A DNA stretch of 44,879 nt from Candidatus Gastranaerophilales bacterium (GTDB lineage: Bacteria; Cyanobacteriota; Vampirovibrionia; Gastranaerophilales; Gastranaerophilaceae), in contig JAJPXE010000114.1 in assembly GCA_021205645.1 (NCBI GenBank), forward strand, positions 1 to 44,879, read 5' to 3'. Shown piece by piece: positions 4,949 through 44,879 of this stretch; position 1 is the stretch's first letter; the number at the start of each line of letters is the position of its first letter. The notes beneath the pieces were generated by a model. It was not told the DNA's origin and made no database searches. It saw nothing but the letters and a program-made list of their open reading frames with translations. Made by a program: the position numbers and the translations under genes.

Positions 4949-6916
4949 TTGGCTAAACAAAAGAAGTTACAGCAGTACATTTTTAAGATAAACTCAACTT
5001 TGCTGGCTAGAAACAATTGGGACTATTATATCTCGTTGGAACGAGCCAGAAAAATACCCGGCATGGTTGTGTCGCTGGCAGATTCTCAAATACTCTCGTG
5101 GATAAATGAGCTGAATGGTATGGAAGATTATGACGAGAAAGCCAGAGAGGTAAAGGCGCAGATTCAGAGAATTAAGCGCCAGCCCAGCAGCCCAGAGAAT
5201 AAAATTAAGATTTCAAGTCTATATAAGCAGCTATATCAACTTCAGTTTAAAGAAGACTATGTTTGTGTGGTTATGGACAAGAAATCTGATTATAAACGAG
5301 CAAATCAGGGGTTTAAAATCAACGGGATTGAGTATAAACGGCTGATTTGTACCACAAATGGGGTGAAAACCTCCTCCGTGGTATATGTGAGTGTGCGGCT
5401 GCACCAGATTTTACGGGATAGGATTGACAATGGCAGAAATATGGAAACGCCACTCGTCCCCGCAAAACTGGGGGCTTACGAGTCCCTGGTTGCCAGCGCT
5501 TCACTCCCCGTGAGTTGGCCTAGACCACCGGATTCTAAAATTCCGGGCGGCATTATTGTGGTGAAGGATTGTGAAACGCATTTTAAAGCGGATTTAATAA
5601 ATATTGATACGAGCAAAGATGGGGCGGAGCCAACAGTTGAGTTTGCGCCTAATCAAGACGTGAAGAACAACTGCTCGGATGGCTGCTCTATGATGCTGCC
5701 GTCACTGTCGAGAAGATGGAACGGCGAGCTGAATGGGGATTTTGAGGATACACTCAGCGGGTGTAATTTACGATGCGCCTGGACAAAGGGTATGACATTC
5801 ACGTTTGATTTTATTGAGTTCGCAGAAAAAATCGTTGGAGCATCTGATGAATGCCCTGAAAAATATCTGATTACAGATGTTTGGGGGCAGCAGAGAGATA
5901 TTCGGGATGCTGAGTTGATTTTGACTGAGAGCCAGTTGAAGTTGTGGGCTTGCTATGACTCGTGGGAAGATTATTTTGAGAAATGCCTGAAGAATGGGTA
6001 TACGATACGGGTAGTTAAGACGGCCCCGCATGAGTTAGATGATGTGAGACAGACTAATTACCAATATTTGCAAGTTTTTGAACTTTCTGATGACGATATT
6101 GAAGATTTAATAGCCCCAACTGTAAATGAGATTAAGGACATTACGGGGTTAGACCCACAAAAGAGCATTGTTTATTTATGCGGGAAGGGGTTAAATGAGA
6201 AGACTGTTGCGTATGCAGACCCGTGTGCCAGGGCGATTATGGTAGATGAAAATGCGATAAATGATGCCTATATTCGCTCGAAAATCAGCAAAATGATAAG
6301 CACTCGGATACGAGAGGCTAAGATTGGGGTTCTTGATGTACATAGTAATTTTCAGATTATTTCTGGAGATTTATATGCGCTTTGCGAGAGTATGTTTGGG
6401 CTTGAGGTGTATGGGCTGCTGAAGGCTGGCGAAATTTATAGCAAGTATTGGCGAGATGAAAATGTAGAAGGCGTTTTGTGTTTTAGATCGCCCATGAGCA
6501 ATCGTTGGTCGGTGGTTCGGCAGAATATTTCTTATGATGATGAGGCTGCTTATTGGTTTAGGTATATAGATTGCTGTATGGTTGTAAATGGTTGGGATAT
6601 GATGCTTTCAAGTCTCAACGGGGCTGATATGGACGGCGATATTATATATTCAACTAATAATTTAGTTTTGATGAATAATCAAGAAAATCTTCCTCCGTTG
6701 AGTTGTGCGCAAAGTGCAGCTAAAAAAGTGATGGTTGCAGAAGATGATGTAGTTGAATCTAATTTAAATGGTTTCGGCAGTAAAATCGGACAAATTACGA
6801 ACAGAATTACGGCTATTACGAGTTTAATGGCGAATTATGAGCCAGGGAGCTTGGAATATGAAACGCTGGAGAGGAGAACCCAAATGGGGCAAAAAATTCA
6901 GCAGGATGAAATTGAT
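4949..6916 (+). CDS. YonO-like single-subunit two-barrel RNA polymerase, exon 1
   Basis: CFRSPMSNRWSVV...(39 aa)...LNGADMDGDIIYS matches the R.P...(spacer)...DxDGD catalytic-loop pattern of YonO and cellular RdRP-type polymerases. TTG start after GAGGTGGTG. The ORF runs on into the intron to a stop at 6976. Confidence 0.65.
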
Positions 6917-10578: not shown

Positions 10579-11817
10579 ATGCCGCGTGGAAGACCGCCAA
10601 AAAATGCAAAGCCAGTTGTTAAAGAGGACGAAATTAAATGTCTATGTCCATATTGCAATAAGATGAAGATGCCGTCTGAGTTTTATGTCAGTTCAGATTC
10701 TAAGCTAATGACCGGAAGAACTGTGATGTGCAAGACTTGCGCAGAGCGGATTGCAAGAAATTATGACGAGAGAACAAAGACCTTTGGAGACTGTACAAAA
10801 GCGAGTATCCAGGAGGCATTGGAGCGCCTGGATAAACCTTATTTGGACGATTTGTGGGAGACATCTTATCAGGAGTTTGCAAGTACGAAAAAGACAAATA
10901 TTTGGGCGGCGTATATCAAGAATGTGAGTATGCCGCAGTATAAAACAATGCGTTGGCGTGATGGAGACTTATATTCTAATTACAGAGAGATGGCAATTAA
11001 ACAGGCTAGGAAAGAAGCAAGAGAATCTTCATTGCCGCCAGATTCCAGTTCTAAGGTTCTGGATATTTCTGAAGAATACCAGCGGAATAAGAATGATGTT
11101 ATTCGGCTGTTGGGGTATGACCCCTTTGAATCAGAACTGGAAGCGGACAAGCCACTGCTGTATTCCCAGTTGATTGGTTATTTGGATTTGGGCGGAGACA
11201 ACGAGGACATGATGCGCGTTTCTTCCGCTGTCACAATTGTGCGTGGTTTTTTACAGCAATCTAAGATTGACGACATGATTGCGAGTGACATGAGCAGCCC
11301 CAATATTGCCAGCAAGACGGGAGAGATTAAGACGCTTCTTGACTCAAAACAGAAGATTAGTTCGACTATTTCACAGCTTGCAGAGCAAAGTTGTTTAAGT
11401 TTAAAGCACAATAAGAACGCCAGCAAAGGCGAAAATACATTTACTGGAAAAACAAAGCGGCTAAAAGAAATGAATCTGAGAGAAATGGAGAATAACGCCT
11501 TTGATGTGGGAACCTGCGAGGGTATGCGGCAGGTTGCAGATATTAGCAATGCGTCCATATTAAAGCAGATTCATTTAGACGAGAATGATTATACGGAGAT
11601 GCTGGCGCAGCAGAGAGATATGATTGTGAAACTCCAAAGAGAGGCAGATGAGGCAGTTGAGCAGTCGAGAATTCTACTGCGAGAAAATATGGATTTGAAA
11701 AATTTCATAATAGAGCAAGGGATTGACATTTCAGAGAACTTGTCCGACAGCACCATATTGACCGTTGAGGAGGAGGTGGCTGAGTCGGATGAGCGAGAAG
11801 TTGATTCTGCCAAATGA
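10579..11817 (+). CDS. hypothetical zinc-ribbon/coiled-coil protein; candidate small terminase by position only
   Basis: AGGAGAAAGAGG SD. N-terminus has CLCPYCN...CKTC, and the C-terminus is acidic and coiled-coil-like. Lies immediately upstream of, and overlapping, the large terminase gene. Confidence 0.35.
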   Translation: MPRGRPPKNAKPVVKEDEIKCLCPYCNKMKMPSEFYVSSDSKLMTGRTVMCKTCAERIARNYDERTKTFGDCTKASIQEALERLDKPYLDDLWETSYQEFASTKKTNIWAAYIKNVSMPQYKTMRWRDGDLYSNYREMAIKQARKEARESSLPPDSSSKVLDISEEYQRNKNDVIRLLGYDPFESELEADKPLLYSQLIGYLDLGGDNEDMMRVSSAVTIVRGFLQQSKIDDMIASDMSSPNIASKTGEIKTLLDSKQKISSTISQLAEQSCLSLKHNKNASKGENTFTGKTKRLKEMNLREMENNAFDVGTCEGMRQVADISNASILKQIHLDENDYTEMLAQQRDMIVKLQREADEAVEQSRILLRENMDLKNFIIEQGIDISENLSDSTILTVEEEVAESDEREVDSAK

Positions 11818-14800
11818 TTATAAAGTATTTGAAGCGCCAAATGACTATGGTGTTTCACAGAGAAAACTCCGGGGCTTTAAAGAGCTTGCGGAGTTTCGTG
11901 CTTATTATAACAGGAACCCGGTTAAGTTTATGGAGGATATACTGGGGGCAAAACTGTTAGACTCTCAGGCGTATTGTGTTCAGGCTAGTTGGGACACTCC
12001 TTATGTAGTATGGGTGTGTTCGAGAGGGTACGGGAAAGCTATTTGCACAAAAACTAGGCTTCCAACCCCCAACGGATTTAGGCAACTTGACGAAATTGGG
12101 GTTGGGGATTATGTATTTGGAGACGATGGCAAACCTGCAAGAGTTATCCACGTTTCACCCACTTTTTATGACCATGATTGCTATAAGATGACTTTTTCAG
12201 ATGGGGAAGAAATTGTAGCGGATGCCGACCACATTTGGACAATGTATAAGTATGGTCGGCTTGGAGATTTTACAACCGCTGAGCTTGCAAAAGAATATAG
12301 AAGATACTGGAATAGAGCAGACCCTTCTAAAAATGGCTGGGAATATCTCTATAAAGTTGATATTTGTAAGCCACTTGAATATAAAGAGCAGGATTTATTG
12401 ATAGACCCATACATATTGGGGCTGTGGCTTGGAGATGGAAGTTCTTGGAGTAGCTTATTGACTGTCGCTACTACGGATTTAGAAGAAACTGTTAAAAATA
12501 TTGAGGCGACCGGGTATAAAGTTTATAGTGTGACAAAGAATAGGAATAATAAAAGCGTCTGTATTCATACTCCAGACGATAAGCCACTTATAACATTGTT
12601 GCGCCAGGAAAATTTATTCCGCAATAAACACATTCCTCAACAATATCTTTATGGAAGCATAGAACAGCGTCTTGCGTTACTCCAAGGGTTGATGGATACA
12701 GATGGAACTGTTGATAAATATGAGAACTGTTCATTTGTCCAGTGTATTGCCCACGAGGACATTGTAGATGATACTGTTAGACTAATAGAGTCTCTTGGCA
12801 TGAAAACGAGCGTAATGTTGAAAGAAAAAACCTGCAACGGCAAACGCTTCAAAGCCAAGGAAGTCTACTTTAGGGCCGACAAACAGCTTCCCGTCTTTCG
12901 TATGAGGCGCAAATATGACCGGCTTCCAGAACACAGGCCACCAAATGCGCTGCACAAATCTCTCATTAACATAGAACAGGTCGAGAGTGTCCCGACCAAA
13001 TGTTTGATGGTTGATAATGACAGCCATCTTTTTTTGTGCGGAAATAAGAACACCATTACACATAATAGCACTTTGGTTGACCTTATTTTGATGTCAAAGT
13101 GCTTCCTGAATCCGAATTACATGGCATATATTGCGGCTGGCAGCTCAGAACAGAGTATTCAAACCTTCCAGACGCTTTACAAGTTGGCGCATAAATCTAT
13201 TGAATCTATGCCCGGTTTGACAGACCTGTTTAAACAAGAGGTAGAGATTAAGAACGCTACTGGGGACGGCTTTGTGCGTAACCCCGCTGGCAATTATGTG
13301 TCACTATATAATGGCAGCATGATAAAAACGCTAAACAGCAACATTAACCTGCGTCGTGGCGCTCGTGCCAACATGGTGATGTTTGATGAGACGGGCTGGC
13401 TTTCTGAGGAAATGCTGGCCGTTTATGCTGCTTTTACTATCGTGAATAAGGATATGAAGCTGGGCGGCGACATAGACCAGGAGACAATCAAGACGCTTCC
13501 AAAGGATATAGCCAACCAGTTATTTTATGTGTCCTCGGCATCATCCATCTCTACTCCGTTTTATCAGCGGTACAGAGAGTTTTCCAAGCAGATGCTGCTG
13601 GGGAATAAAGATTATTTTGTGGCTGAGATAAATTGTGATGTTGTGATTAACGCCACTGTGGGCGGCAAAGTCTATCCGGCCTCACTGTTAAAGCGGGAAA
13701 CAGTTGAGACAGAGATGCGGAACAATTCAGAGAAGGCGTCCCGCGAGTTTTTCTGCCGTTTTTCTGACGGAGAGAGCTTGAATAACATTATTAAGCGGGC
13801 CTGGATTACCAGAAATTCTTATACCAGGAAGCCGATTTTGCATAATGATACAAATGAGCGCAAGATATGTCTCTTTTATGACCCTGCCCGCAGCTCTGAT
13901 AATTCAATTATGTTAGTTACAGAGCTATATAAGGACGAGAAAAAGGGCTACATGATGGATGTTATCAACTGTGTCAGTTTTGCAGATATTAGTCTGAGGA
14001 AGAAGACTCCAATGAGATACCAGGAGCAAATTGCGGCTATTCACGAGTTGTTGCTGGATTATAACGGGGATGCAGACGACTATGAAAATATTGAGGTCGT
14101 TATGGCCGATGCTGGTGCAGGCGGCGGGGGAAACTCGTGGTTTGGCGATTCGCTCATGGAGGATTGGGTTGATAACCGTGGCAACAAGCATCGTGGGCTG
14201 ATAGACAAGGAATATTCAGAGGAATATGTGCGCAGATTCCCGAATGCCATTAACAAGTTACGGCTGATGAATCCGGGCACCTATAAATCAGAGGCGTTTG
14301 AAGCTCTGATAAAAATGGTAGAAGCTGACCTTATCACCTTTCCGGCAGAGTATGACAACAAGGGCTATATAAACCTGATGGAAATAGATGAAAAAGTGCT
14401 GCGCAGGCAAAAAGATGAATTGTGGGAGAAAATCAATAAACTTGAGATTTCTGAGGTAGATAAAGAAGAACGGCTACAGGAAGAACTTGCGGCATTAGAT
14501 ATTGGCAAGATTAAAACAGAAAAACTGAGTGTCGAAGAAGAAGTTGCGCTCAAGCAAATAGATGCGATGAAGGAAGAAATTGTAAACATCTGCCGCACCA
14601 AGAGAGAGTCTGGGAAGGACAGCTTTAAGCTCCCCGCTTATAAGGATGCAGAAACAGGGGCCAGCGAAGCCACCATGCACGATGACCGAGCATATTGTTT
14701 GGCATTGGCGGGTTGGTATTTGTCCGAGCGGCGCATGGATGCAATTCGACGCAGGAAGAAACCCTCTACGAAAGGGATTGTAGATAAATTACCCGTGCAT

Positions 14801-14833
14801 AAAGCGAAACCAATTAAAAAGACATTTGGATGA
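11789..14833 (+). CDS. terL: terminase large subunit precursor (contains intein)
   Basis: P-loop region CSRGYGK, Walker B MVMFDETGW, and nuclease-domain acidic motifs FYDPARSSDNS and HDDRAYCLALA. ATG 11789 follows GAGGAGGAGG. Mature extein would be about 673 aa. Confidence 0.85.
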   Translation: MSEKLILPNDYKVFEAPNDYGVSQRKLRGFKELAEFRAYYNRNPVKFMEDILGAKLLDSQAYCVQASWDTPYVVWVCSRGYGKAICTKTRLPTPNGFRQLDEIGVGDYVFGDDGKPARVIHVSPTFYDHDCYKMTFSDGEEIVADADHIWTMYKYGRLGDFTTAELAKEYRRYWNRADPSKNGWEYLYKVDICKPLEYKEQDLLIDPYILGLWLGDGSSWSSLLTVATTDLEETVKNIEATGYKVYSVTKNRNNKSVCIHTPDDKPLITLLRQENLFRNKHIPQQYLYGSIEQRLALLQGLMDTDGTVDKYENCSFVQCIAHEDIVDDTVRLIESLGMKTSVMLKEKTCNGKRFKAKEVYFRADKQLPVFRMRRKYDRLPEHRPPNALHKSLINIEQVESVPTKCLMVDNDSHLFLCGNKNTITHNSTLVDLILMSKCFLNPNYMAYIAAGSSEQSIQTFQTLYKLAHKSIESMPGLTDLFKQEVEIKNATGDGFVRNPAGNYVSLYNGSMIKTLNSNINLRRGARANMVMFDETGWLSEEMLAVYAAFTIVNKDMKLGGDIDQETIKTLPKDIANQLFYVSSASSISTPFYQRYREFSKQMLLGNKDYFVAEINCDVVINATVGGKVYPASLLKRETVETEMRNNSEKASREFFCRFSDGESLNNIIKRAWITRNSYTRKPILHNDTNERKICLFYDPARSSDNSIMLVTELYKDEKKGYMMDVINCVSFADISLRKKTPMRYQEQIAAIHELLLDYNGDADDYENIEVVMADAGAGGGGNSWFGDSLMEDWVDNRGNKHRGLIDKEYSEEYVRRFPNAINKLRLMNPGTYKSEAFEALIKMVEADLITFPAEYDNKGYINLMEIDEKVLRRQKDELWEKINKLEISEVDKEERLQEELAALDIGKIKTEKLSVEEEVALKQIDAMKEEIVNICRTKRESGKDSFKLPAYKDAETGASEATMHDDRAYCLALAGWYLSERRMDAIRRRKKPSTKGIVDKLPVHKAKPIKKTFG
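12044..13066 (+). mobile_element. intein with LAGLIDADG homing-endonuclease domain (341 aa)
   Basis: Starts CTKTRLPTPNGFRQLDEIGVGDYV (block A). DADHIW (block B). Two LAGLIDADG motifs, ILGLWLGDGSS and LLQGLMDTDGTV. Ends FLCGNKNTITHN followed by +1 Ser (13067). Confidence 0.85.
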
Positions 14834-19850: not shown

Positions 19851-20039
19851 ATGAAGTTGTATGTTTGTAGAGGAAAGCGGCAAGCCAATTATTTTTTGGA
19901 CTATGGCTGCAAACTAATTCGTATTGATTGTGACAAGACAGCAAAGGGGTATCTTGTCTTTATCTTTCACTGGAATGGCGCACTTGATGCTGCGTTAAAG
20001 TCATGGGAGACAGATAAAGACACCTATTTGATTTCTTGA
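19851..20039 (+). CDS. DUF5659-like small protein (paralogue 3 of 4)
   Basis: QANYFLDYGCKLIRIDCDKTAKGYLVFIFHWNGALDAAL. AAGGAGA SD. Confidence 0.5.
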   Translation: MKLYVCRGKRQANYFLDYGCKLIRIDCDKTAKGYLVFIFHWNGALDAALKSWETDKDTYLIS

Positions 20040-20059
20040 GTTTGAAGGAGGATAAAGTT

Positions 20060-20869
20060 ATGGGAGAAGTTTGTAACATTCTTCATGAATCTGGAATCTA
20101 TTCAATTGAGTGTTTGATAAACGGTAAAAAGTACATCGGACAATCGATAGATATGAAGAAAAGAGTCATACAGCATAGATGCGATTTAAGACGACATGAC
20201 CATATGAACGAAGATTTACAGTCGGATTGGGATGAGTATGGGGAAGGAAATTTTAGTTTTGACGTATTGGAAAAATGTGAAATTTCTGAATTGGATAATA
20301 AAGAACGATTTTATATTGGTTGTTGCAAATCAAATCTTATTGAGTTTGGATATAATATTGAGGCTGGTGGAATTTGCCCTGGCCCAATGTGCGACAGAAC
20401 AAAAGAGAAACAGTCAAAAGTACAGACTGGAAAAGTCCGTACAGATGAGACAAGAAAGCGCCTTTCTGAATCTCATTTAGGAGAGAAAAATTCTATGTAT
20501 GGGAAGCATCATACAGACGAAACAAAAAAGAAAATCTCTGAAAATCGTCGTCCAGTGCGAGGCAAAGACTATCCTAATTATGGTAAGCATTTTTCTGAGG
20601 AGACGAGGGCTAAACTTAGTGCTTCTCATATTGGAAAAAACACTGGAGCAAGCCATCCTCGTCATCATTCTATCTATTGCCCAGAGTTGGATGAGTATTT
20701 TGATACAATTACTGCGGCGACACGGAAATATGGAGTTTCTGATGCACATATCAGTAGCTGCTTGTCTGGAACAAGAAAATCCGCTGGCAAACATCCCATA
20801 ACTGGAGAAAAATTACATTGGCTTGACGCCAAAACTGGTACAAACAATTTGCAACAACTTGAAAATTGA
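20060..20869 (+). CDS. free-standing GIY-YIG homing endonuclease (I-TevI-like, with NUMOD3 repeats)
   Basis: GIYSIECLINGKKYIGQS...R...H catalytic motifs. Repeated ETRKRLSESHLGEKN, DETKKKISENRR and EETRAKLSASHIGKN units. C-terminal HTH-like region. GAAGGAGGA SD. Confidence 0.85.
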   Translation: MGEVCNILHESGIYSIECLINGKKYIGQSIDMKKRVIQHRCDLRRHDHMNEDLQSDWDEYGEGNFSFDVLEKCEISELDNKERFYIGCCKSNLIEFGYNIEAGGICPGPMCDRTKEKQSKVQTGKVRTDETRKRLSESHLGEKNSMYGKHHTDETKKKISENRRPVRGKDYPNYGKHFSEETRAKLSASHIGKNTGASHPRHHSIYCPELDEYFDTITAATRKYGVSDAHISSCLSGTRKSAGKHPITGEKLHWLDAKTGTNNLQQLEN

Positions 20870-28076: not shown

Positions 28077-31000
28077 ATGGCAGATAAAAAAAGACAAGTT
28101 GTTGTAGAGCTGTCGTTAGATACAAAAGACGCAGAAAAGAATATGAAAAAAATTACTGCAAATCTCGAAACGATGGCTGAAAGTGCCGGGAAATATGGTG
28201 ATTTTTCCTATTTTACGACATTATTAGACTATCTTGCGCAGATAGAAGATAGGTTGAATGAGTTACAAAAGCAAGACTCTGTTAAATTTGAAGATATTTT
28301 TGGGAAGAATGCAACAACTTTTATTGACTCTATTACCAAGTCGGTATCTTCGCTTTTAGAGGCTCCAGAACTTCTTGAACAGGCTGTATCCAAAATTGCT
28401 TCTATGGACTTTTCTGGAAATGCGGAGGAGGCACGAGAGGCAATTGAATTGCTTATAAATGTTTATCAACGTCTTGGACTTGAGGCCCCGAATGCTTTTG
28501 ACGGATATGAAAATTGGGATACCTCCACTTTAAGGTCTAAAGTAGATGATATTAAAAAAGCTGCGACAGATTTAAGTGGTATTGATTGGGGAAAAGCATT
28601 TAATGTAGAGGTTCCAGGTTCTATAGAAGAACAAATAAAAGAACTTGATAAACAGGTTACTAACCTTCAAAGAGTGAAGACTAGATGGAATAAAGCGATT
28701 GAAAACTGGGAACTCAATGGCATTGTTCCCAAGGGCAAAGAAGGCTCTACAAAAGAAGAAATTGACGAATATTGTGATATGCTTAGAAGCAATATTGAAC
28801 AGATTGATGAGCAAATGGAGTCGTTGTTCTCTAAAAAGTACGATTTGTCTCCAGATTCTATTTTCCAAGATTTTAATGATGCTGTAACAAAAGCATTTGA
28901 TTTTGATTTAGACACCGAGGAACAATCGCTTCGGACGCACTTAGATAAAATGCAAGCAATGGTGGACGCCTGTAGGGAAAATATTGATAGCGGTCTTGCC
29001 AACGAGTTGCAGGGAGTGCTTGATGATATTAATAGATATACCTTTAAACCAGATGAGGTTGATACAAGTGGCATTCAGAAAAGCATGGAAGCCATTATTG
29101 AGAAATATCAAAAAACTAGCGAGGCTGCCAATGATACAAAGCAAGAAGTTGTAAGCGCAAATGACGAAATAAATAACAGCTTCAATTCCAGTGGGGATGG
29201 CAATCCTAAAGCCGTACAACAGTATGAAGACCTTGGGGAAGCTGCTGCCAGTGCTGGTGATGCGGCCAAAGGTGCCGGAGATGATATTAAGAACGCCCTA
29301 AGTGGTAGTATTGGCAACGGAGCAAATGAGACTAAAAACAGTCTAAATGATGTGGCTGATGCCGCAGAAAATGCAGGAGATGCGACGAAGGCTGCCGGGA
29401 GTGCAATGGAAAGCGCATTTGATGGCAGTAATCCAAAAATAGCGGAATTACAGCAGCAGCTTGAAGAGATGACAAAAAAAGCGGCAGCAGCAGAACAAGA
29501 AGCGTATGATTTAGGGTCTGATGTATCTCATTTGCAGCAAGAGAACAGCGAACTTGGGAACTCATTATTAGATGCAAATAACAAAATTGAGGAAATGACT
29601 AAAAACCTGTCGGAGCAGGCTACCAAAATACAACAGCTTGAAAGTACAGTCTCTGGTATGGGCGATGGTTGGAGTAAGTATTTTGATGCAAGTGACCAAA
29701 TTGAAGCACAAAAGAAGCAAATAGCGGAGTTATCAACAACGTGCGAAACACTTCGGAGTGTACTCGATAACACGGATTCTGTGTGGGGCATTGAGAAGAA
29801 GCTAGAGTCTGTTTCAAGTGCGCTTCAACAGATGTCTGAAATGGTTGTTCAGTCCGCAGAGAAGGTCGACCAGCTTCAAAAAGAGTTTTCTGAGTTGAAT
29901 ACGCAAGCAGGAACCAATTCGATTTCAAGCGAGTCCTTTAATGAAATACTTCAAATATTAAAAGAGCTTGTTGCAGAGATGCAACCGTTTGTGTCCGCGT
30001 TGAATAATAGCGAGACTGCCCTAGGACAAATGGCAACTGAGGGCGGAGCCAGCATTCAGACATTGGTTGGGCAGCTTGAATCGCTTAGTGCAACACTTGA
30101 TGAGATTTCACAGAAATCTTTGGGAATAAACATTTTCCAGAAAGCAAGTGGGAGTGGCGGTACAGACCTTGCCGCATATAAAGAATCTTTGTTGTCTTTA
30201 CAAGACCCATTAACGCAGACAATAAGACTGGCACAAACGTTATCTGGCACAAATGGGACAGTTGCGCAAGCTGCGTATGGTATTGCTGATGCTATTGGCA
30301 GCCTTTCCAATGTAAAGAGTAAAGCGGCTATTGAAAATAATGCTAACGAATTACAACATTGGTACAACGTTCTTGTCCAAATAATTGAAGCCTCTGGGCA
30401 AGCGGAACAAATCAATTTTGAAAAGATTAAATTCCCAACGGCAGCAGATTTCAGTACAGATGCTACAGATAAATTCTTGCAGAGCCTCACAGATATAAAT
30501 ACGCAGTCGCAAACCACGACGGTTGAAACGACGCAAAATTTCACTGAGCTGGTTGCCGTTTTAGAGAAACTTTCAACCACCCTTGACGAGGTTGTCAAAA
30601 CATTCGATGGGCTAAAACTCAATATTAGCACAGAAGAACTTAGTCAATCTTTGGAACAAATTAAGCGACTTGAGCAGGAAATCGCTGATTTGAAGCAGCA
30701 GATGGCAGAAGTTAATGCAAATACTGGTGAAACAGGCGGCATGAAGGAAGGCTTTAAAGAAATTGCTGATGCTGCGGAAGATACGGCTCAAAAAGTTGAA
30801 GGCATTAAAGATAGTGTTGAGGAAACGCAGCAAGCGCTTGAAGATGCTGGTAAGGCGGCTAAGGAAGCGTTTGGTGACGAGGCCACCGCAGGTATAGATA
30901 ACGTACAAGATGAGGTAAAAGAGACTGTCGATGTTACACAGGAAGCTGCGCAAGATATTAAGCAGGCAGGAGAAGAAATCAAAAATGCGTTTAGTGATAC

Positions 31001-35868: not shown

Positions 35869-36326
35869 GAGTTTTGTTTGACCCAAAAATATGATGAGTC
35901 TCCAAATTCATCACGCATTGGGTGACAAATCCGCAAAAAGCGGAGACAAACGTGGACGAGGCTTGGCGTTGCGCCGCAGGCATAATTAACCTGCGGCTAC
36001 ACTCCACGCACAAGTCCATGAGTAGTTCTCTTTTAAAACAAAAACTAAGGGGTAAATGCTGGAAACACCGGTTAAACCGTTCTGCCTGAATTTTTTAGGA
36101 GCGAAAGCAGAAACAAGTGAACGGCTGGCGCAAGGGAATACATAAGCCTAAACGCTACGCGACGCGAATAGCGGAGCAGATGGTCAATCAGCAGGACGGC
36201 ATGAGCTGTAAAAGCGAGTGCAATCCTCAGAGACTACCCACCCTTCGGGCTGCTACGCATATACAAACGCGGCAACCTGTAATGTATAGTCCAAATGCGG
36301 AAAAACAGGCAGCAAAGCAAAAAAAC

Positions 36327-36362
36327 GGGAAGATGCCCCCGCAGTAACGAGAACATCTTCCC
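36327..36362 (-). terminator. rho-independent terminator (minus strand)
   Basis: Minus strand reads GGGAAGATG...CATCTTCCC followed by GTTTTTTT. Confidence 0.6.
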
Positions 36363-36368
36363 TGCGCA

Positions 36369-36455
36369 CTAGGCGCAGAAGCGGTACCTGACCGAAGTCC
36401 GTACCTGGATACGAGCCTTAACTCGTACCTTTACAGTACACTTAACTTTAGCCAT
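36369..36455 (-). CDS. 28-codon highly basic mini-ORF (may be non-coding)
   Basis: Minus strand has an AAAGGAGGTGG SD, 6 nt, then ATG. Translates MAKVKCTVKVRVKARIQVRTSVRYRFCA. Lies between a consensus promoter and a terminator, but also inside intron-structured sequence. Confidence 0.3.
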   Translation of the reverse strand: MAKVKCTVKVRVKARIQVRTSVRYRFCA

Positions 36456-36551
36456 GTGTACCACCTCCTTTCTAGGCCGTCAGGGAAAGAGGGTGTCAAC
36501 GACTTTCCCATTTCGGCTCTAAAAAGCAAAGCAAAAGGTGTTACTACACAT

Positions 36552-36580
36552 ATTATATACGGGCTTGGTATTTTTGTCAA
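36552..36580 (-). promoter_or_regulatory. perfect-consensus sigma-70 promoter (minus strand), firing antisense into the intron core
   Basis: Minus strand reads TTGACA (36580-36575), exactly 17 nt, TATAAT (36557-36552). Confidence 0.6.
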
Positions 36581-36723
36581 TGCGCGTTGCTTTGTTACCT
36601 TAATTATATTCTGAGAACCTATCTCTCGATTGTGGTTCCCCTGGCGCGGGGATGATGGGGGGCGCCATTAACATATTTTATATTCATTTTAGAAATAGTA
36701 CAAGAAATATGTCGTAAAAAGGC

Positions 36724-36752
36724 TTGACAACATCCTTGCGTAGATTTATACT
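36724..36752 (+). promoter_or_regulatory. sigma-70-type promoter for the cassette + strand genes
   Basis: TTGACA (36724-36729), 17 nt, TATACT (36747-36752). Lies 40 nt upstream of the GGAGGGAAATATG start. Confidence 0.6.
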
Positions 36753-36792
36753 TTTAATAAAAATACGGGAGGTGTTGTTTTTGGAGGGAAAT

Positions 36793-37104
36793 ATGCAGAG
36801 AAAACCAAACATCCCACCAGATGGTTTGGCGCGTAAACGACGCAAATCTGGAAGGCCGTTGTATAGGGGTATAATACATTACACTGGAGACAAAAACATT
36901 TCTAATAGTAATGGTTCTTTTATTGTTTATACAGGGCAATATAAAGGTGTAAAGCATTTTAATAAAAAATTGGTAATCAGATGGGAAACAAAGAAGCCTA
37001 TCACTAATGGGCTACAGGCAGCATCTGATGTACCGAAAGAGGGAGCGGGCAGACCTATTTTACCAAAGCCTGCCCCAACAAAAAGGGACGGTGATAAAAA
37101 ATAG
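36793..37104 (+). CDS. small basic protein with AT-hook-like GRP motifs (103 aa)
   Basis: GGAGGG SD. ARKRRKSGRPLYRG and EGAGRPILPKP resemble AT-hook cores. Lys-rich tail. Confidence 0.55.
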   Translation: MQRKPNIPPDGLARKRRKSGRPLYRGIIHYTGDKNISNSNGSFIVYTGQYKGVKHFNKKLVIRWETKKPITNGLQAASDVPKEGAGRPILPKPAPTKRDGDKK

Positions 37105-37229
37105 ATGCACTTTTAGTTTGTATACAGGGTATAGCCATTATTATAGATGGGCTTATACCGGGACTTATATGCTGCGAAGTCTTTTTATTCCTTAGCTCTA
37201 AAAAAGTCTCTCATTTAGAATTAAGGTTA

Positions 37230-37754
37230 TTGGCATATATTATTATTACGAGAGCAATTAAGTCGTTGATGGCGTTATTACATGGCTTTATTTTTGCGCA
37301 ATGGCATCCAGGGGATTTACAAAAAATTATAGTATATTACTTTTTTGCTGTTATTCTTGGGGTTATGTCCGCAATTATTTGGAAAAGTGATAAGTTCTCC
37401 CGTGCTTTGTTGAAATTTTCCAGGAAGACAACAGACTCTGATATCTTCAATGGGCTACTTGATTTTGATGGGGGCACGGGGGTAAATGTTGTGTTGAAAA
37501 ATGGAGATATTATAAATGGCTCTGTTTTTCGAGTAGAAGAAAACGGAAATGATTCTTGGATAGCATTACATGATTATGATATATATCAACATGATGGTCT
37601 TGAAGTTCATTCTTCTGATTTTAAAGAGGAAGGAATTGTATTGATAAAGCGGAATGATATTTTAAGGATTCATTATACCTACACCCCAAATACTAAAATG
37701 TCAGATGCGCTCGTGCAACAAAGGGGACGGCGCATAGAAAAAAATAAAAAATAA
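37230..37754 (+). CDS. membrane-anchored protein of unknown function (174 aa)
   Basis: Two N-terminal hydrophobic helices (SLMALLHGFIFAQW, IIVYYFFAVILGVMSAIIW) and a beta-rich C-terminal domain. TTG start with a weak SD, so the start is uncertain. Confidence 0.45.
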   Translation: MAYIIITRAIKSLMALLHGFIFAQWHPGDLQKIIVYYFFAVILGVMSAIIWKSDKFSRALLKFSRKTTDSDIFNGLLDFDGGTGVNVVLKNGDIINGSVFRVEENGNDSWIALHDYDIYQHDGLEVHSSDFKEEGIVLIKRNDILRIHYTYTPNTKMSDALVQQRGRRIEKNKK

Positions 37755-37790
37755 CAAAACCGAGCAAGTATTCACGCCTGCTCGGTTTTA
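37755..37790. terminator. bidirectional rho-independent terminator between convergent cassette genes
   Basis: CCGAGCA / TGCTCGG stem flanked by an A-run on the left (AACAAAA) and a T-run on the right (TTTTA). Confidence 0.65.
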
Positions 37791-37848
37791 ATGTTTGCTT
37801 ATTTATTTCGTATTAGAATTTATAACCGCAATCTTGGCATTGGTGGGG

Positions 37849-39174
37849 CTAGTATCGTTCGATGGAGTCGATGTATGTTTCTGGCTGAATGTTAATATTG
37901 TAGTCGTGGATGAAGTTATAATCATCAAGCCATTTATAAAATGCCTTATCATTTTCAAATTTCATCCCATTTATATCCATGCGCCTTTCGAGAAAATGAA
38001 GTACCTCTGTTTTGGTCATAATGCCATCATAGATTGCATGAGCTAAAATAGAACGCCGTGTTCGCGCAGATAGTGCATCTCTTTGCGATACATTATACCC
38101 AAGTTGGTGTAAAACGCTTTCTTCGCTCCAAGAGCTGTATTCCCAATCGTAAAAGCCAGAACCTAGCATTCTTATATCGTTTGCTAGTGGGCCAAGGATA
38201 TTTCGATAATACTCATAGGCGGAATAGCTTAACATCTTTCGTTTACAATAATAGCAATATTCGAGGTCAATTTTCCACTCTTCTCCGCTGTCGTCTTTGA
38301 CGATTGTAGTAACTTGGGTGATTGGATGATGGTGCCTAAAACAGACAATCAAACCTTTGTAAACATATAATGTGTTATTTGGTTCGGGCTGCGGTGGCTC
38401 TGAGAATTGAAATTTGGGACTTGCTTTTATTCTCTGTGGAATTTCTTTTGGTTGCACCGGAGCGGGTCGGTGCTGCACAGCGCAAAGTCGAGCAACTGTT
38501 TCATCACGAGCTTTTAGCTTCATCTTTGGAACAATTTGTAGCGCATCTGGTGTGATTGTGTAGTATATGTCGGCAATAGCCCAATATTCTTTGCCGCTAA
38601 TTATGACAGATTCTCCCGGACATTGAGCATCCATCACGGCAATAATTCTGACCATTTTATTCGGGACTCGGTATACGGGGATAAAATACTTAGCCTTAGA
38701 AAGATATGAATCAAGTTTTCTGGCGTCTTTTAATGTACAAATGCTTCCGAGTGAGACTTTTCTGGTCAGATATTCGTCTTTAGCCGTTTTCGCATCTTCC
38801 CACTCTTTTTGTATACGAGCGTTGCGAGAAATTGGTGCCAGTTCTGGCTTTGGGGCTTCTCTCTTTTGCATCTCGGCTATTTTCTTGCGGAGATAATAAC
38901 GGATTGGGTTTAAGTATTCCTCTCCATCAACTTTCATTTCTGGTATAATTGTCAGTGCTTCAATTGGGAACTCCATCGGCCAGGAAAGCCGCGCATAATA
39001 TTGCCGATGGTTGATTTTGATGATTCTAACTCCAGAGCATTCTTCTTCTACTACAGGTACAACCAATGCCGTTTCAATGTTTTCTTGCACATGGACTACG
39101 AGAAAAAGTGCATCATCAGTCCATACTCCACGGTTTTGCTTGCAAATATCGCCAATAGATGGAGTCTTGTACAT
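37849..39174 (-). CDS. 441-aa protein of unknown function: tandem N-terminal barrel-like repeats, Cys/His cluster, helical C-terminal domain
   Basis: Third gene of the minus-strand operon. The internal repeat SIGDIC...ALVVPVV..C.G.RIIKI....YYA......P.EALTIIPEMKV matches SLGSIC...VRIIAVMDAQCPGESVIISGKEYWA....TPDALQIVPKMKL. Cys/His cluster CFRHHH...CYYC. Confidence 0.6.
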   Translation of the reverse strand: MYKTPSIGDICKQNRGVWTDDALFLVVHVQENIETALVVPVVEEECSGVRIIKINHRQYYARLSWPMEFPIEALTIIPEMKVDGEEYLNPIRYYLRKKIAEMQKREAPKPELAPISRNARIQKEWEDAKTAKDEYLTRKVSLGSICTLKDARKLDSYLSKAKYFIPVYRVPNKMVRIIAVMDAQCPGESVIISGKEYWAIADIYYTITPDALQIVPKMKLKARDETVARLCAVQHRPAPVQPKEIPQRIKASPKFQFSEPPQPEPNNTLYVYKGLIVCFRHHHPITQVTTIVKDDSGEEWKIDLEYCYYCKRKMLSYSAYEYYRNILGPLANDIRMLGSGFYDWEYSSWSEESVLHQLGYNVSQRDALSARTRRSILAHAIYDGIMTKTEVLHFLERRMDINGMKFENDKAFYKWLDDYNFIHDYNINIQPETYIDSIERY

Positions 39175-39202
39175 ATGGAATCACCTTTTTCTGCTTTAGG
39201 TT

Positions 39203-39736
39203 CTACCACTTATATCCGCAATCCTTACACTGGAATTGTGACCTGGCCGACTTGCTGAAAATGCCGAGAGTTGCGACGCCTACGGCCTTGCGAGTGAAAG
39301 AGATGGTCTTGATGTTGGTGGAGCCGCAGGTGGGACAGTGGGGGATATGGGCGCGGCGTTCGTGGAACTTGTAGGTATAATTGTACCAGGTGTCATTGAG
39401 AGGATTGGGTTCTGTATGTTTGGACGGGATAAAGCTAACAGAACAGTTATCTGCCTCAAAGTGTTCTTTAATATACTGAACGTTTTCTTCTTTTATCCCC
39501 CCAAGTATAATACTACCATTCTTGTCAAGTAATTTAGTTGCTTCCGCTTTTTGAATCCCAAAATTTTTTAGGACAGCCACAATAAACGATTTAGCTCCAC
39601 CTATGCTATTTATTGTCATGTCAAATAGATTATTTTCTTTTTCCTGCATAGTGCTAATTGGGTATCCACAATGAATACACACAGAAGATTTATCGCTTAT
39701 TTGCTTCCCGCATTCTGGGCAATTTATAAGCGCCAT
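39203..39736 (-). CDS. double zinc-ribbon protein with central ribosomal L7/L12 C-terminal-domain-like fold
   Basis: CPECG..(8)..CIHCG at the N-terminus and CPTCG...CKDCG at the C-terminus. The centre, FDMTINSIGGAKSFIVAVLKNFGIQKAEATKLLDKNGSIILGGIKEENVQYIKEHFEADNCSVSF, aligns by eye with the L7/L12 CTD. AAGGAGG SD. Confidence 0.6.
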   Translation of the reverse strand: MALINCPECGKQISDKSSVCIHCGYPISTMQEKENNLFDMTINSIGGAKSFIVAVLKNFGIQKAEATKLLDKNGSIILGGIKEENVQYIKEHFEADNCSVSFIPSKHTEPNPLNDTWYNYTYKFHERRAHIPHCPTCGSTNIKTISFTRKAVGVATLGIFSKSARSQFQCKDCGYKW

Positions 39737-39756
39737 ATAATTCCTCCTTGTCTTAT

Positions 39757-40191
39757 TTATAGCCCCAATATATTTTTTCTTTTTGCGTCGTATTCGTCTG
39801 GGGTTATGTACCCGGCATCTTTTAATTCGTCTAGCTCTTTAAGCTCTGCCATCTTATTATTTGCTTTAGGTTGTGTCTTTGGTTGGCTAGATGCAGATTT
39901 TTTCTTGTCACTTCCTAGGCCAATTACTCCTGAAGCGAGTAAAATTACACCAATGACAAGGATAATGGCACCTATAACAATGACAATTTTGTAATTGTCC
40001 AGACGCCCTTCCCAGATTGATATTGTTTTGCGTGAAGAATCACTTGAGCCAAATAATGAGTCCAGCCCAGATTGTGCGCTAATCATATTATTGGCTAAAG
40101 AGTACCTATTATATCCGTAGGCTGTAATTCCACCACCGACGACGGTTGATACGCCGCCAATGATTGCTGCTGTTTTAGATGTAGAAGCCAT
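39757..40191 (-). CDS. membrane protein with C-terminal SHOCT domain
   Basis: Gly-rich hydrophobic N-terminus and a TM helix IVIVIGAIILVIGVILLASGVIGLG. C-terminus MAELKELDELKDAGYITPDEYDAKRKNILGL is a SHOCT signature. TAAGGAGGAAAC SD. Confidence 0.65.
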   Translation of the reverse strand: MASTSKTAAIIGGVSTVVGGGITAYGYNRYSLANNMISAQSGLDSLFGSSDSSRKTISIWEGRLDNYKIVIVIGAIILVIGVILLASGVIGLGSDKKKSASSQPKTQPKANNKMAELKELDELKDAGYITPDEYDAKRKNILGL

Positions 40192-40255
40192 AGTTTCCTC
40201 CTTACGCTTAATGCTATTGTTATTTCTTAGTAATTATTGCATTTACTTTTCTGTA

Positions 40256-40284
40256 ATTTTACCACAACTTTACATAAAAGTCAA
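40256..40284 (-). promoter_or_regulatory. sigma-70-type promoter for the minus-strand operon
   Basis: Minus strand reads TTGACT (40284-40279), 17 nt, TGgTAAAAT (extended -10, hexamer 40261-40256). About 65 nt upstream of the 40191 start. Confidence 0.6.
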
Positions 40285-40321
40285 TCTTCTTCTTGTCTGC
40301 TTTCAAGGAGATAAAAGATGG

Positions 40322-44487: not shown

Positions 44488-44879
44488 GAATTTTTTTGTG
44501 CCCCGTTGCCTATTGTTAGGTGACGGTATTCTATTTAATTGCTGGAATATCCTAAAATTAACCAAACTACAGCGTGAGGATGAAATAAGCCTGGGCGCGA
44601 ATGTTGCGAAAGCAGAAAAAATTGGTTAAATAAGTACATGAGTAAAATCTAAATGCTTATGGGAGAAACGTCTGTGAGAGCAGGCGCTTTTTTTGTGCCC
44701 AAAATGGACAATCAGCAGCGAAGCTTCGAACAGAAGAACGTTCAACGACTATCCCTGAGATGGGAGTAGGGCCGCAAGCGGTTGGCGGCTCGAAAAGGTA
44801 GACTATGTAAATTTGATTTTATTGGCGTTATATTGCGTTACAATAAAAAGGATACGTTTATGTTAGTAGAGAATCAATA
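44488..44879 (+). mobile_element. group I intron 4 of TMP gene (5' part; runs off the window)
   Basis: TTTTTTTGTGCCC start resembles the other TMP introns. GCGAAAGCAGAAAAAATTGG and TGGACAATCAGCAGCGAAGC segments. R-like GTTCAACGACTATCCC (44741-44756). No S partner before the window end. Confidence 0.55.

Follow-up and report, generated by a model that had tools for sequence, protein, structure and literature searches.

The window, by which we mean the whole 44,879-nt stretch analysed here, is a phage contig with matches to terminase, portal and tape measure genes. The tape measure gene begins at 28077 and shows intron-like breaks after about 32480, 33415 and 35878. Intron 2 carries an endonuclease ORF, and intron 3 holds on its minus strand the small cassette that is the subject of this work. 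Elsewhere in the window, the terminase large subunit (11765–14833) contains a homing-endonuclease (intein-like) domain, and a GIY-YIG/NUMOD3 endonuclease gene (20036–20869) follows the head genes. A fourth intron apparently begins at the end of a 1,398-aa ORF (44490–44879), a region with an R-like element at 44741 and with 80–82% DNA matches in loci L018, L026 and L027. The GC content is 42.6% in the contig and 37.7% in the assembly, and related phage loci in genomes come mostly from Oscillospiraceae, Eubacteriales, Clostridiales or Roseburia, with two in Bacteroides. The GC gap and these mostly clostridial-type relatives suggest that the contig may be mis-binned and that the host of the phage is uncertain.

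Elements of the minus-strand cassette

Transcription of the cassette is predicted to start from a sigma-70/sigma-A-type promoter on the minus strand (36552–36580), in which TTGACA (36580–36575) and TATAAT (36557–36552) are separated by a 17-nt spacer and match the consensus at 12 of 12 positions. An initial annotation of this DNA had called the promoter rare by chance, and the counts agree: it is the only perfect promoter with 16–18-nt spacing in the window, where hexamer counts predict 0.024 at 17 nt, and one of five in the whole 1.73-Mb assembly. The predicted transcript of ~227 nt would run from 36545, a start placed 6–7 nt past the −10 box, to ~36319. It opens with a structured 5’ leader of about 90–96 nt (36456–36545), predicted to fold around a long 7-bp hairpin (arms 36483–36489 and 36503–36509). 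A Shine-Dalgarno (SD) sequence, AAAGGAGGTGG (36461–36471), is predicted to be paired in each transcript prefix tested and precedes a 28-codon ORF (36369–36455; ATG at 36455, stop at 36371–36369) that encodes a cationic peptide of net charge +9 and contains two in-frame 24-nt repeats (36400–36447). By sequence and folding, a 6-bp palindromic hairpin (36362–36378) spans the stop codon. It is followed by an intrinsic terminator (36319–36362), a 16-pair stem-loop with its stem at 36362–36327 and then T7 at 36325–36319. The initial annotation had described this same series from SD to T7, and every element of it was located on the minus strand.

The transcript as a whole folds at −102 kcal/mol (z = −6.9), a stability reached by none of 200 shuffles. 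A 14-nt inverted repeat (36307–36320 and 36587–36600) surrounds the entire cassette; in the plus-strand intron RNA, pairing of its arms is predicted to leave the cassette as a loop. We also observed an exact 12-nt direct repeat (36311–36322 and 36525–36536) that brackets the part containing the ORF and terminator, with its core inverted at 36587–36594; it is possibly an operator, an insertion scar or a pair of alternative pairing partners.

Intron 3 and its cargo

Intron 3 spans 4,417 nt of the plus strand (35879–40295), from a predicted 5’ splice site after 35878 to a terminal G at 40295. Alignment and helices place its catalytic core at 36047–36292, in which P3 (36047–36053/36237–36245), P4 (36057–36062/36188–36193), P6 and P7 (36232–36236/36287–36291) form, with R at 36227–36245 and S at 36280–36292. 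The internal guide sequence (35937–35950) comprises an 8-bp P10 strand, the wobble G at 35945 and the P1 strand. Using aligned relatives of exon 2 as the query, we found 9 genome and 48 viral loci; with loci sharing the same first 500 nt dropped, 48 were listed, and in 10 of these the gene stops at the intron 3 site. Exon 3 as a query gave no confirmed loci. Close relatives of intron 3 are present in six of the ten split loci (L069, L070, L071, L073, L087 and L088, where L087 is a near repeat of L071). R and S are invariant when four relatives are aligned with the window, and the helices P3, P4, P6 and P7, together with the elements P, Q, R and S, can be traced in the correct order both in the window and in five relatives. 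A guide search returned a single best solution for the window and for each of the six relatives, with a U-G at the 5’ splice site, a terminal G and in-frame exons; P10 measures 8–12 bp, and its pairing is kept through letter changes in L069–L088. The Rfam group I model (RF00028) gave no match in the window or in L073 and a weak one in the L018 intron (20.1 bits, E 0.02, below the gathering score of 50), so the group I assignment of intron 3 rests on its helices. By these helices intron 3 is a group I intron, and its splicing is predicted.

The relatives of intron 3 are about 1,000 nt long, as against 4,417 nt in the window, where the cargo occupies a P9 insert between 36293 and 40294 and the P1/P10 splice signals are intact across about 4.0 kb of it. 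In this predicted layout the cargo of the insert begins with the cassette. Behind it lie plus-strand ORFs at 36724–37104 and 37230–37754, after an 11/12 promoter at 36724, and a hairpin (37755–37790) with T-rich tails on both sides, which a late transcript, if laid out as predicted, must either read through or circumvent by being joined in trans. Minus-strand ORFs of 441, 177 and 144 aa follow a 10/12 promoter at 40284. This promoter for a minus-strand ORF (40256–40284) sits 11–40 nt inside the predicted 3’ splice site, and at least one minus-strand ORF lies within the insert in all ten split loci (among them L022, L043 and L069–L088). Pfam and PHROGs revealed no homing endonuclease among the cargo ORFs of intron 3.

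The initial annotation had placed the cassette transcript over the R element, P7 and P3’ of intron 3 and proposed that it could block folding or splicing. These elements lie at 36227–36245 and 36287–36291, outside the transcript, which ends ~28 nt short of the core at P7. The segment that had been taken for them (36495–36509) is the loop and 3’ arm of the local leader hairpin. Read on the plus strand it is an R-element look-alike outside the intron core, and its resemblance to the R elements of introns 1 and 2 (36488–36512, including 36495–36509) explains the first reading. We found no P-like element to accompany it in 36300–36495 and rejected the segment as intron core. The claimed complementarity to the plus-strand intron RNA thus stands by location, in the peripheral insert, and falls for the catalytic core, which is uncovered: judged by the predicted positions, the cassette RNA is not antisense to it. 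Nor did the expectation that homologous introns would keep the promoter hexamers hold, as the cassette is present in none of the six closest introns. There, S is followed by a short stretch and then by an antisense ORF of about 180–200 codons. With the core at 36047–36292, these six introns free of the cassette, and the relatives of its ORF outside introns, we abandoned the idea of an antisense RNA directed at the core. As a separate observation, window positions 36521–36540 are partly complementary to the guide region (35935–35954) and resemble the start of exon 4.

Scanning the window together with loci L005–L030 and L039–L094 for a promoter of at least 10/12, an SD and an ORF of 15–75 codons yielded eight rows, three of them antisense within tape-measure introns (the window, L018 and L093) and five on the plus strand. 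Antisense small-ORF cassettes at other positions are found in two of the ten split loci, L018 and L093. The L018 cassette (5107–5394, minus strand) occupies the P6 loop of an intron that differs from intron 3 but interrupts the tape measure gene at the same place. It has a promoter whose spacer is alike at 11 of 17 nt to that of the window, a 97-nt leader (96 nt in the window) and a terminator, and is enclosed by an 8-bp inverted repeat. Its 33-aa peptide is hydrophobic (GRAVY 1.45), the usual build of a type I toxin, and an extended −10 site on the opposite strand, scoring near chance, overlaps the start codon. Among these loci, L018 offers the strongest candidate for a conventional type I toxin-antitoxin module carried by a group I intron. 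Searching for the promoter and leader pattern found L018 and one unrelated promoter in viral contigs and four unrelated promoters in metagenomes, with no third example of this likeness. At the same site, L093 (8650–14120) has an intron-like insert with several antisense ORFs of 61–65 aa, similar hairpins after each, and larger ORFs. L022 (10530–11580) and L043 (8530–10930) have in common another type of insert, structured and strongly conserved, that contains Q-like and R-like words; its R is unusual, and it may represent a divergent subgroup of group I.

The cationic peptide and its relatives

Polar and apolar residues alternate nearly without exception along the 28-residue peptide (GRAVY −0.01). 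Its hydropathy alternation score was reached by none of 200,000 residue shuffles, is the highest among 32,017 28-mers of the window, and is equalled by one of 1,039,417 in the rest of the assembly, where the best score belongs to a simple repeat. The alternation belongs to the ATG frame. Together with a relative that shares 9 of 12 residues and occurs in two other prophages, it supports the initial annotation's other proposal, a small peptide gene, and the 28-codon ORF looks selected. The hydrophobic moment is 2.75 at 180 degrees (strand) and 0.31 at 100 degrees (helical), and it is this sequence period that suggests an amphipathic strand. AlphaFold2 instead returned a single long helix in both runs (weak models, from one and three sequences), which counts against a strand. 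The peptide contains no membrane helix or hydrophobic transmembrane helix, and the APxxxG motif is absent from it.

Database searches with the peptide gave no usable homologue among 1.84 billion representatives, in phage and plasmid collections or in the ESM Atlas, and no match in Pfam (E up to 10) or PHROGs. An exact look-up in about 15 billion proteins contained neither this peptide nor that of its relative L109, three peptide patterns each had zero matches in viral contigs, and none of five related phage records encodes it. In 301 genomes of the order of the window's assembly there was one extra match (E 0.05) with no SD-ATG context; since the contig is possibly mis-binned, searches among these genomes say little. 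The one match in 400 scored genomes of the class of G526 (E 0.02) is antisense to a long ORF, and the one match in 171 genomes of the family of G527 is a 511-aa ORF. Rfam holds no family for the cassette or for the relatives described below. A literature search, with most subscription papers and all supplements outside its scope, found no work joining group I introns, tape measure genes and type I toxin-antitoxin systems, and nothing on the cassette arrangement or the peptide; small-protein catalogues in supplements could already list the peptide family.

The relatives were found with a degenerate codon pattern, which itself forces part of the likeness. It matched in 14 of 401 genomes: 13 matches are proteins of 114–117 residues, of which the one scanned is ribosomal L20, and the remaining one is L109, which a direct protein search of the 400 scored genomes had missed. 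In the order of L109's genome the pattern matched in 4 of 239: L109 itself, L110, which is nearly a copy of it, and a pair of ORFs of 301 residues; the member of this pair that was scanned has a GHMP kinase domain. The L109 peptide has 24 residues and a net charge of +9. Over residues 2–13 it is identical to the window peptide at 9 of 12 positions, and six of these nine are encoded with synonymous codon changes. The short length, the net charge, the hairpin predicted over the stop codon and the occluded SD of L109 and L110 are not dictated by the pattern. Both lie in a common unit of ~250 nt that is bounded by an inverted repeat and closed by an AAAGCAA/TTGCTTT motif, while their flanks differ. 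The units belong to two prophages, each with phage integrase genes close by and with late-region genes converging on it. We found no P or R element near either, indicating that the gene exists without any intron. Their leaders showed no sequence-level alignment with that of the window by eye. The proposed peptide family rests on these two near-identical, pattern-found relatives. Between the L109 cassette and the integrase lies a PBECR4-family gene (L113, 1899–2612). A leader-peptide or attenuator role was also considered and rejected, there being no same-strand gene downstream in the window, L109 or L110.

A locked message and its possible function

By folding prediction the cassette message would be translationally locked. 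Opening the region from SD to AUG would cost 19.9 kcal/mol, compared with a mean of 6.4 (sd 3.5, maximum 16.4) for 30 other starts in the window, making this SD the most occluded of the 31 starts tested. The cost is 11–19 kcal/mol in all seven transcript prefixes and 11–14 in L109, L110 and L018. In the nascent RNA a 5’ CCUUU segment, also present in L109, L110 and L018, is predicted to pair with the SD, and later the end of the ORF does so. A separate antitoxin gene is hard to find in the window: the sole candidate promoter is a plus-strand site facing the cassette (36262–36290) that matches at 8 of 12 positions, which is chance level, and no plus-strand terminator is listed between 35867 and 39798. 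L109 and L110 have a candidate antisense promoter, again 8/12 and near chance, over the ORF start, where aapA1 carries its antitoxin promoter; the window has no such site there.

A strong promoter over a locked ribosome-binding site is the design of the aapA1 message (PMC5416894) and of Fst and ZorO (PMC8309996). The former describes how the SD of AapA1 is sequestered and then released by processing. Like the cassette, the aapA1/IsoA1 system of Helicobacter pylori and the Fst/Ldr systems (PMC5416894 and PMC8309996) have a stable message of ~230–250 nt with the SD sequestered in cis. L109 and L110 further recall the aapA1 layout described there, with a 5’–3’ long-range helix and the 8/12 antisense promoter inside the ORF start. 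By contrast with these systems, the window peptide has neither an amphipathic helix nor the APxxxG motif, which PMC8309996 locates in the hydrophobic helix of the Fst/Ldr family, and at the start codon the window lacks an antisense promoter. Clostridial prophages are sites where type I modules cluster (PMC6563280). The Gram-positive modules described there (the CD0956.2/RCd10 class of C. difficile, and bsrG/SR4 and txpA/RatA of B. subtilis) share with the cassette an ORF of fewer than 60 codons, a prophage setting, their own promoter and terminator, and an orientation opposite to the late genes. Their toxins, however, contain a hydrophobic segment, either N-terminal or transmembrane, and are paired with a mapped antitoxin RNA; the window peptide has neither, and no sequence match to them. 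The type I toxins described in PMC8309996 and PMC6563280 are hydrophobic. By these comparisons the cassette may be called type-I-toxin-like in layout, and we do not file it as a member.

Morons are an established concept for phage genes. Like them, the cassette has its own promoter and terminator, is absent from relatives at the same site and lies in the tail region; morons, however, sit between genes, whereas the cassette occupies a group I intron of the tape measure gene. In phage group I introns whose peripheral loop encodes an ORF, the homing-endonuclease type seen in intron 2, the cargo is looped out of the core as it is in intron 3. Unlike those introns, intron 3 carries the cassette and five larger ORFs, on both strands and with their own promoters and terminators.

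We consider it somewhat probable that the cassette is a moron that encodes a small protein and has the message design of a type I toxin, its cationic, non-hydrophobic peptide being a putative toxin. A self-contained gene would have landed in the peripheral P9 insert of the 4.4-kb intron, where the insertion would be spliced out at the RNA level at little cost to the phage. In the lysogen the cassette would be transcribed as a stable, translationally locked RNA of ~227 nt, and translation would be released by a processing or refolding step or by loss of an antisense partner. The amphipathic cationic peptide could then bind an anionic membrane or nucleic acid and slow or kill the cell, with the effect that the prophage is maintained or superinfection aborted.

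The same selected ORF, its net charge without a membrane helix and the lack of a clear antitoxin would also suit a genuine small-protein moron that is no toxin, its peptide being a rationed nucleic-acid- or protein-binding factor for superinfection exclusion, anti-defence or chaperoning of the long intron RNA. We hold this to be possible, if on the unlikely side: a maximal promoter over a strongly occluded SD is easier to reconcile with a harmful product, and an intron-specific chaperone would leave unexplained the relatives outside introns and the six introns that lack the gene. A bolder extension of the putative-toxin reading, which we regard as doubtful, is that a mobile family of 24–28-residue cationic peptides with strict K/R-V alternation forms RNA-controlled toxins that dispense with the hydrophobic helix and, as amphipathic strands, target membranes or nucleic acids. 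The late transcript or excised intron would then be a perfect antisense partner that replaces an antitoxin gene and silences the toxin message in lytic growth, the reverse of the direction first envisaged. Were the ORF incidental, the cassette could be a structured non-coding RNA, a sponge or trans-acting sRNA, as its very stable fold (z = −6.9) and an ORF that is itself one long hairpin might suggest. The synonymous-biased differences from L109, the perfect SD, the alternation in the ATG frame and the lack of an Rfam family make this very improbable. Hardly credible at all is a chance assembly or the dead relic of a second intron core: 36488–36512 does resemble the R regions of introns 1 and 2, but the look-alike has no P-like element, and promoter, SD, ORF, alternation, fold and terminator each beat controls.

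An antisense role may still be argued for the insert rather than the core. A duplex of ~227 bp in the P9 insert, cut by RNase III, would part the core from a 3’ splice site 3.7 kb away and could silence leaky late transcripts in a lysogen; alternatively, the leader could pair with the guide sequence. The promoter is maximal, and perfect complementarity to the precursor (36319–36545) follows from position. The predicted pairing energy between leader nt 1–30 and the guide sequence is −17.0 kcal/mol, compared with −9.6 for the native P10; the former value is equalled by 26 of 6,361 24-mers of the window and was noticed after the fact. However, transcript and core do not overlap, and the strongest duplex that any stretch of the transcript forms with the core (−25.9) was equalled by 9 of 40 shuffles. 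The guide-pairing leader segment is partly paired in cis, and the AAAGCAA/TTGCTTT motif that makes the pairing also closes the intron-free L109 and L110 units. The cassette is missing from the closest introns, the same kind of duplex would arise from three larger antisense cargo genes, and the selected ORF is left unexplained. We therefore judge this role quite unlikely; the best explanation is that any antisense effect of the cassette on the intron follows from its position and is not its purpose.

Peptides of 24–28 residues fall below the gene-calling limit, and given this size and the absence of both sequences from about 15 billion proteins, the family may be widespread but invisible. Should the peptide prove toxic, type I toxins would extend beyond hydrophobic helices. 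Strand-forming peptides of lysine and valine have been designed, and a toxic window peptide would be their natural counterpart; if it is non-toxic, the cassette would be an ordinary moron with no assigned function. The locus also presents group I introns of an essential structural gene as landing pads for entire transcription units, some of them toxin-like; the cassette for a hydrophobic peptide that the L018 intron carries in its P6 loop is a second example.
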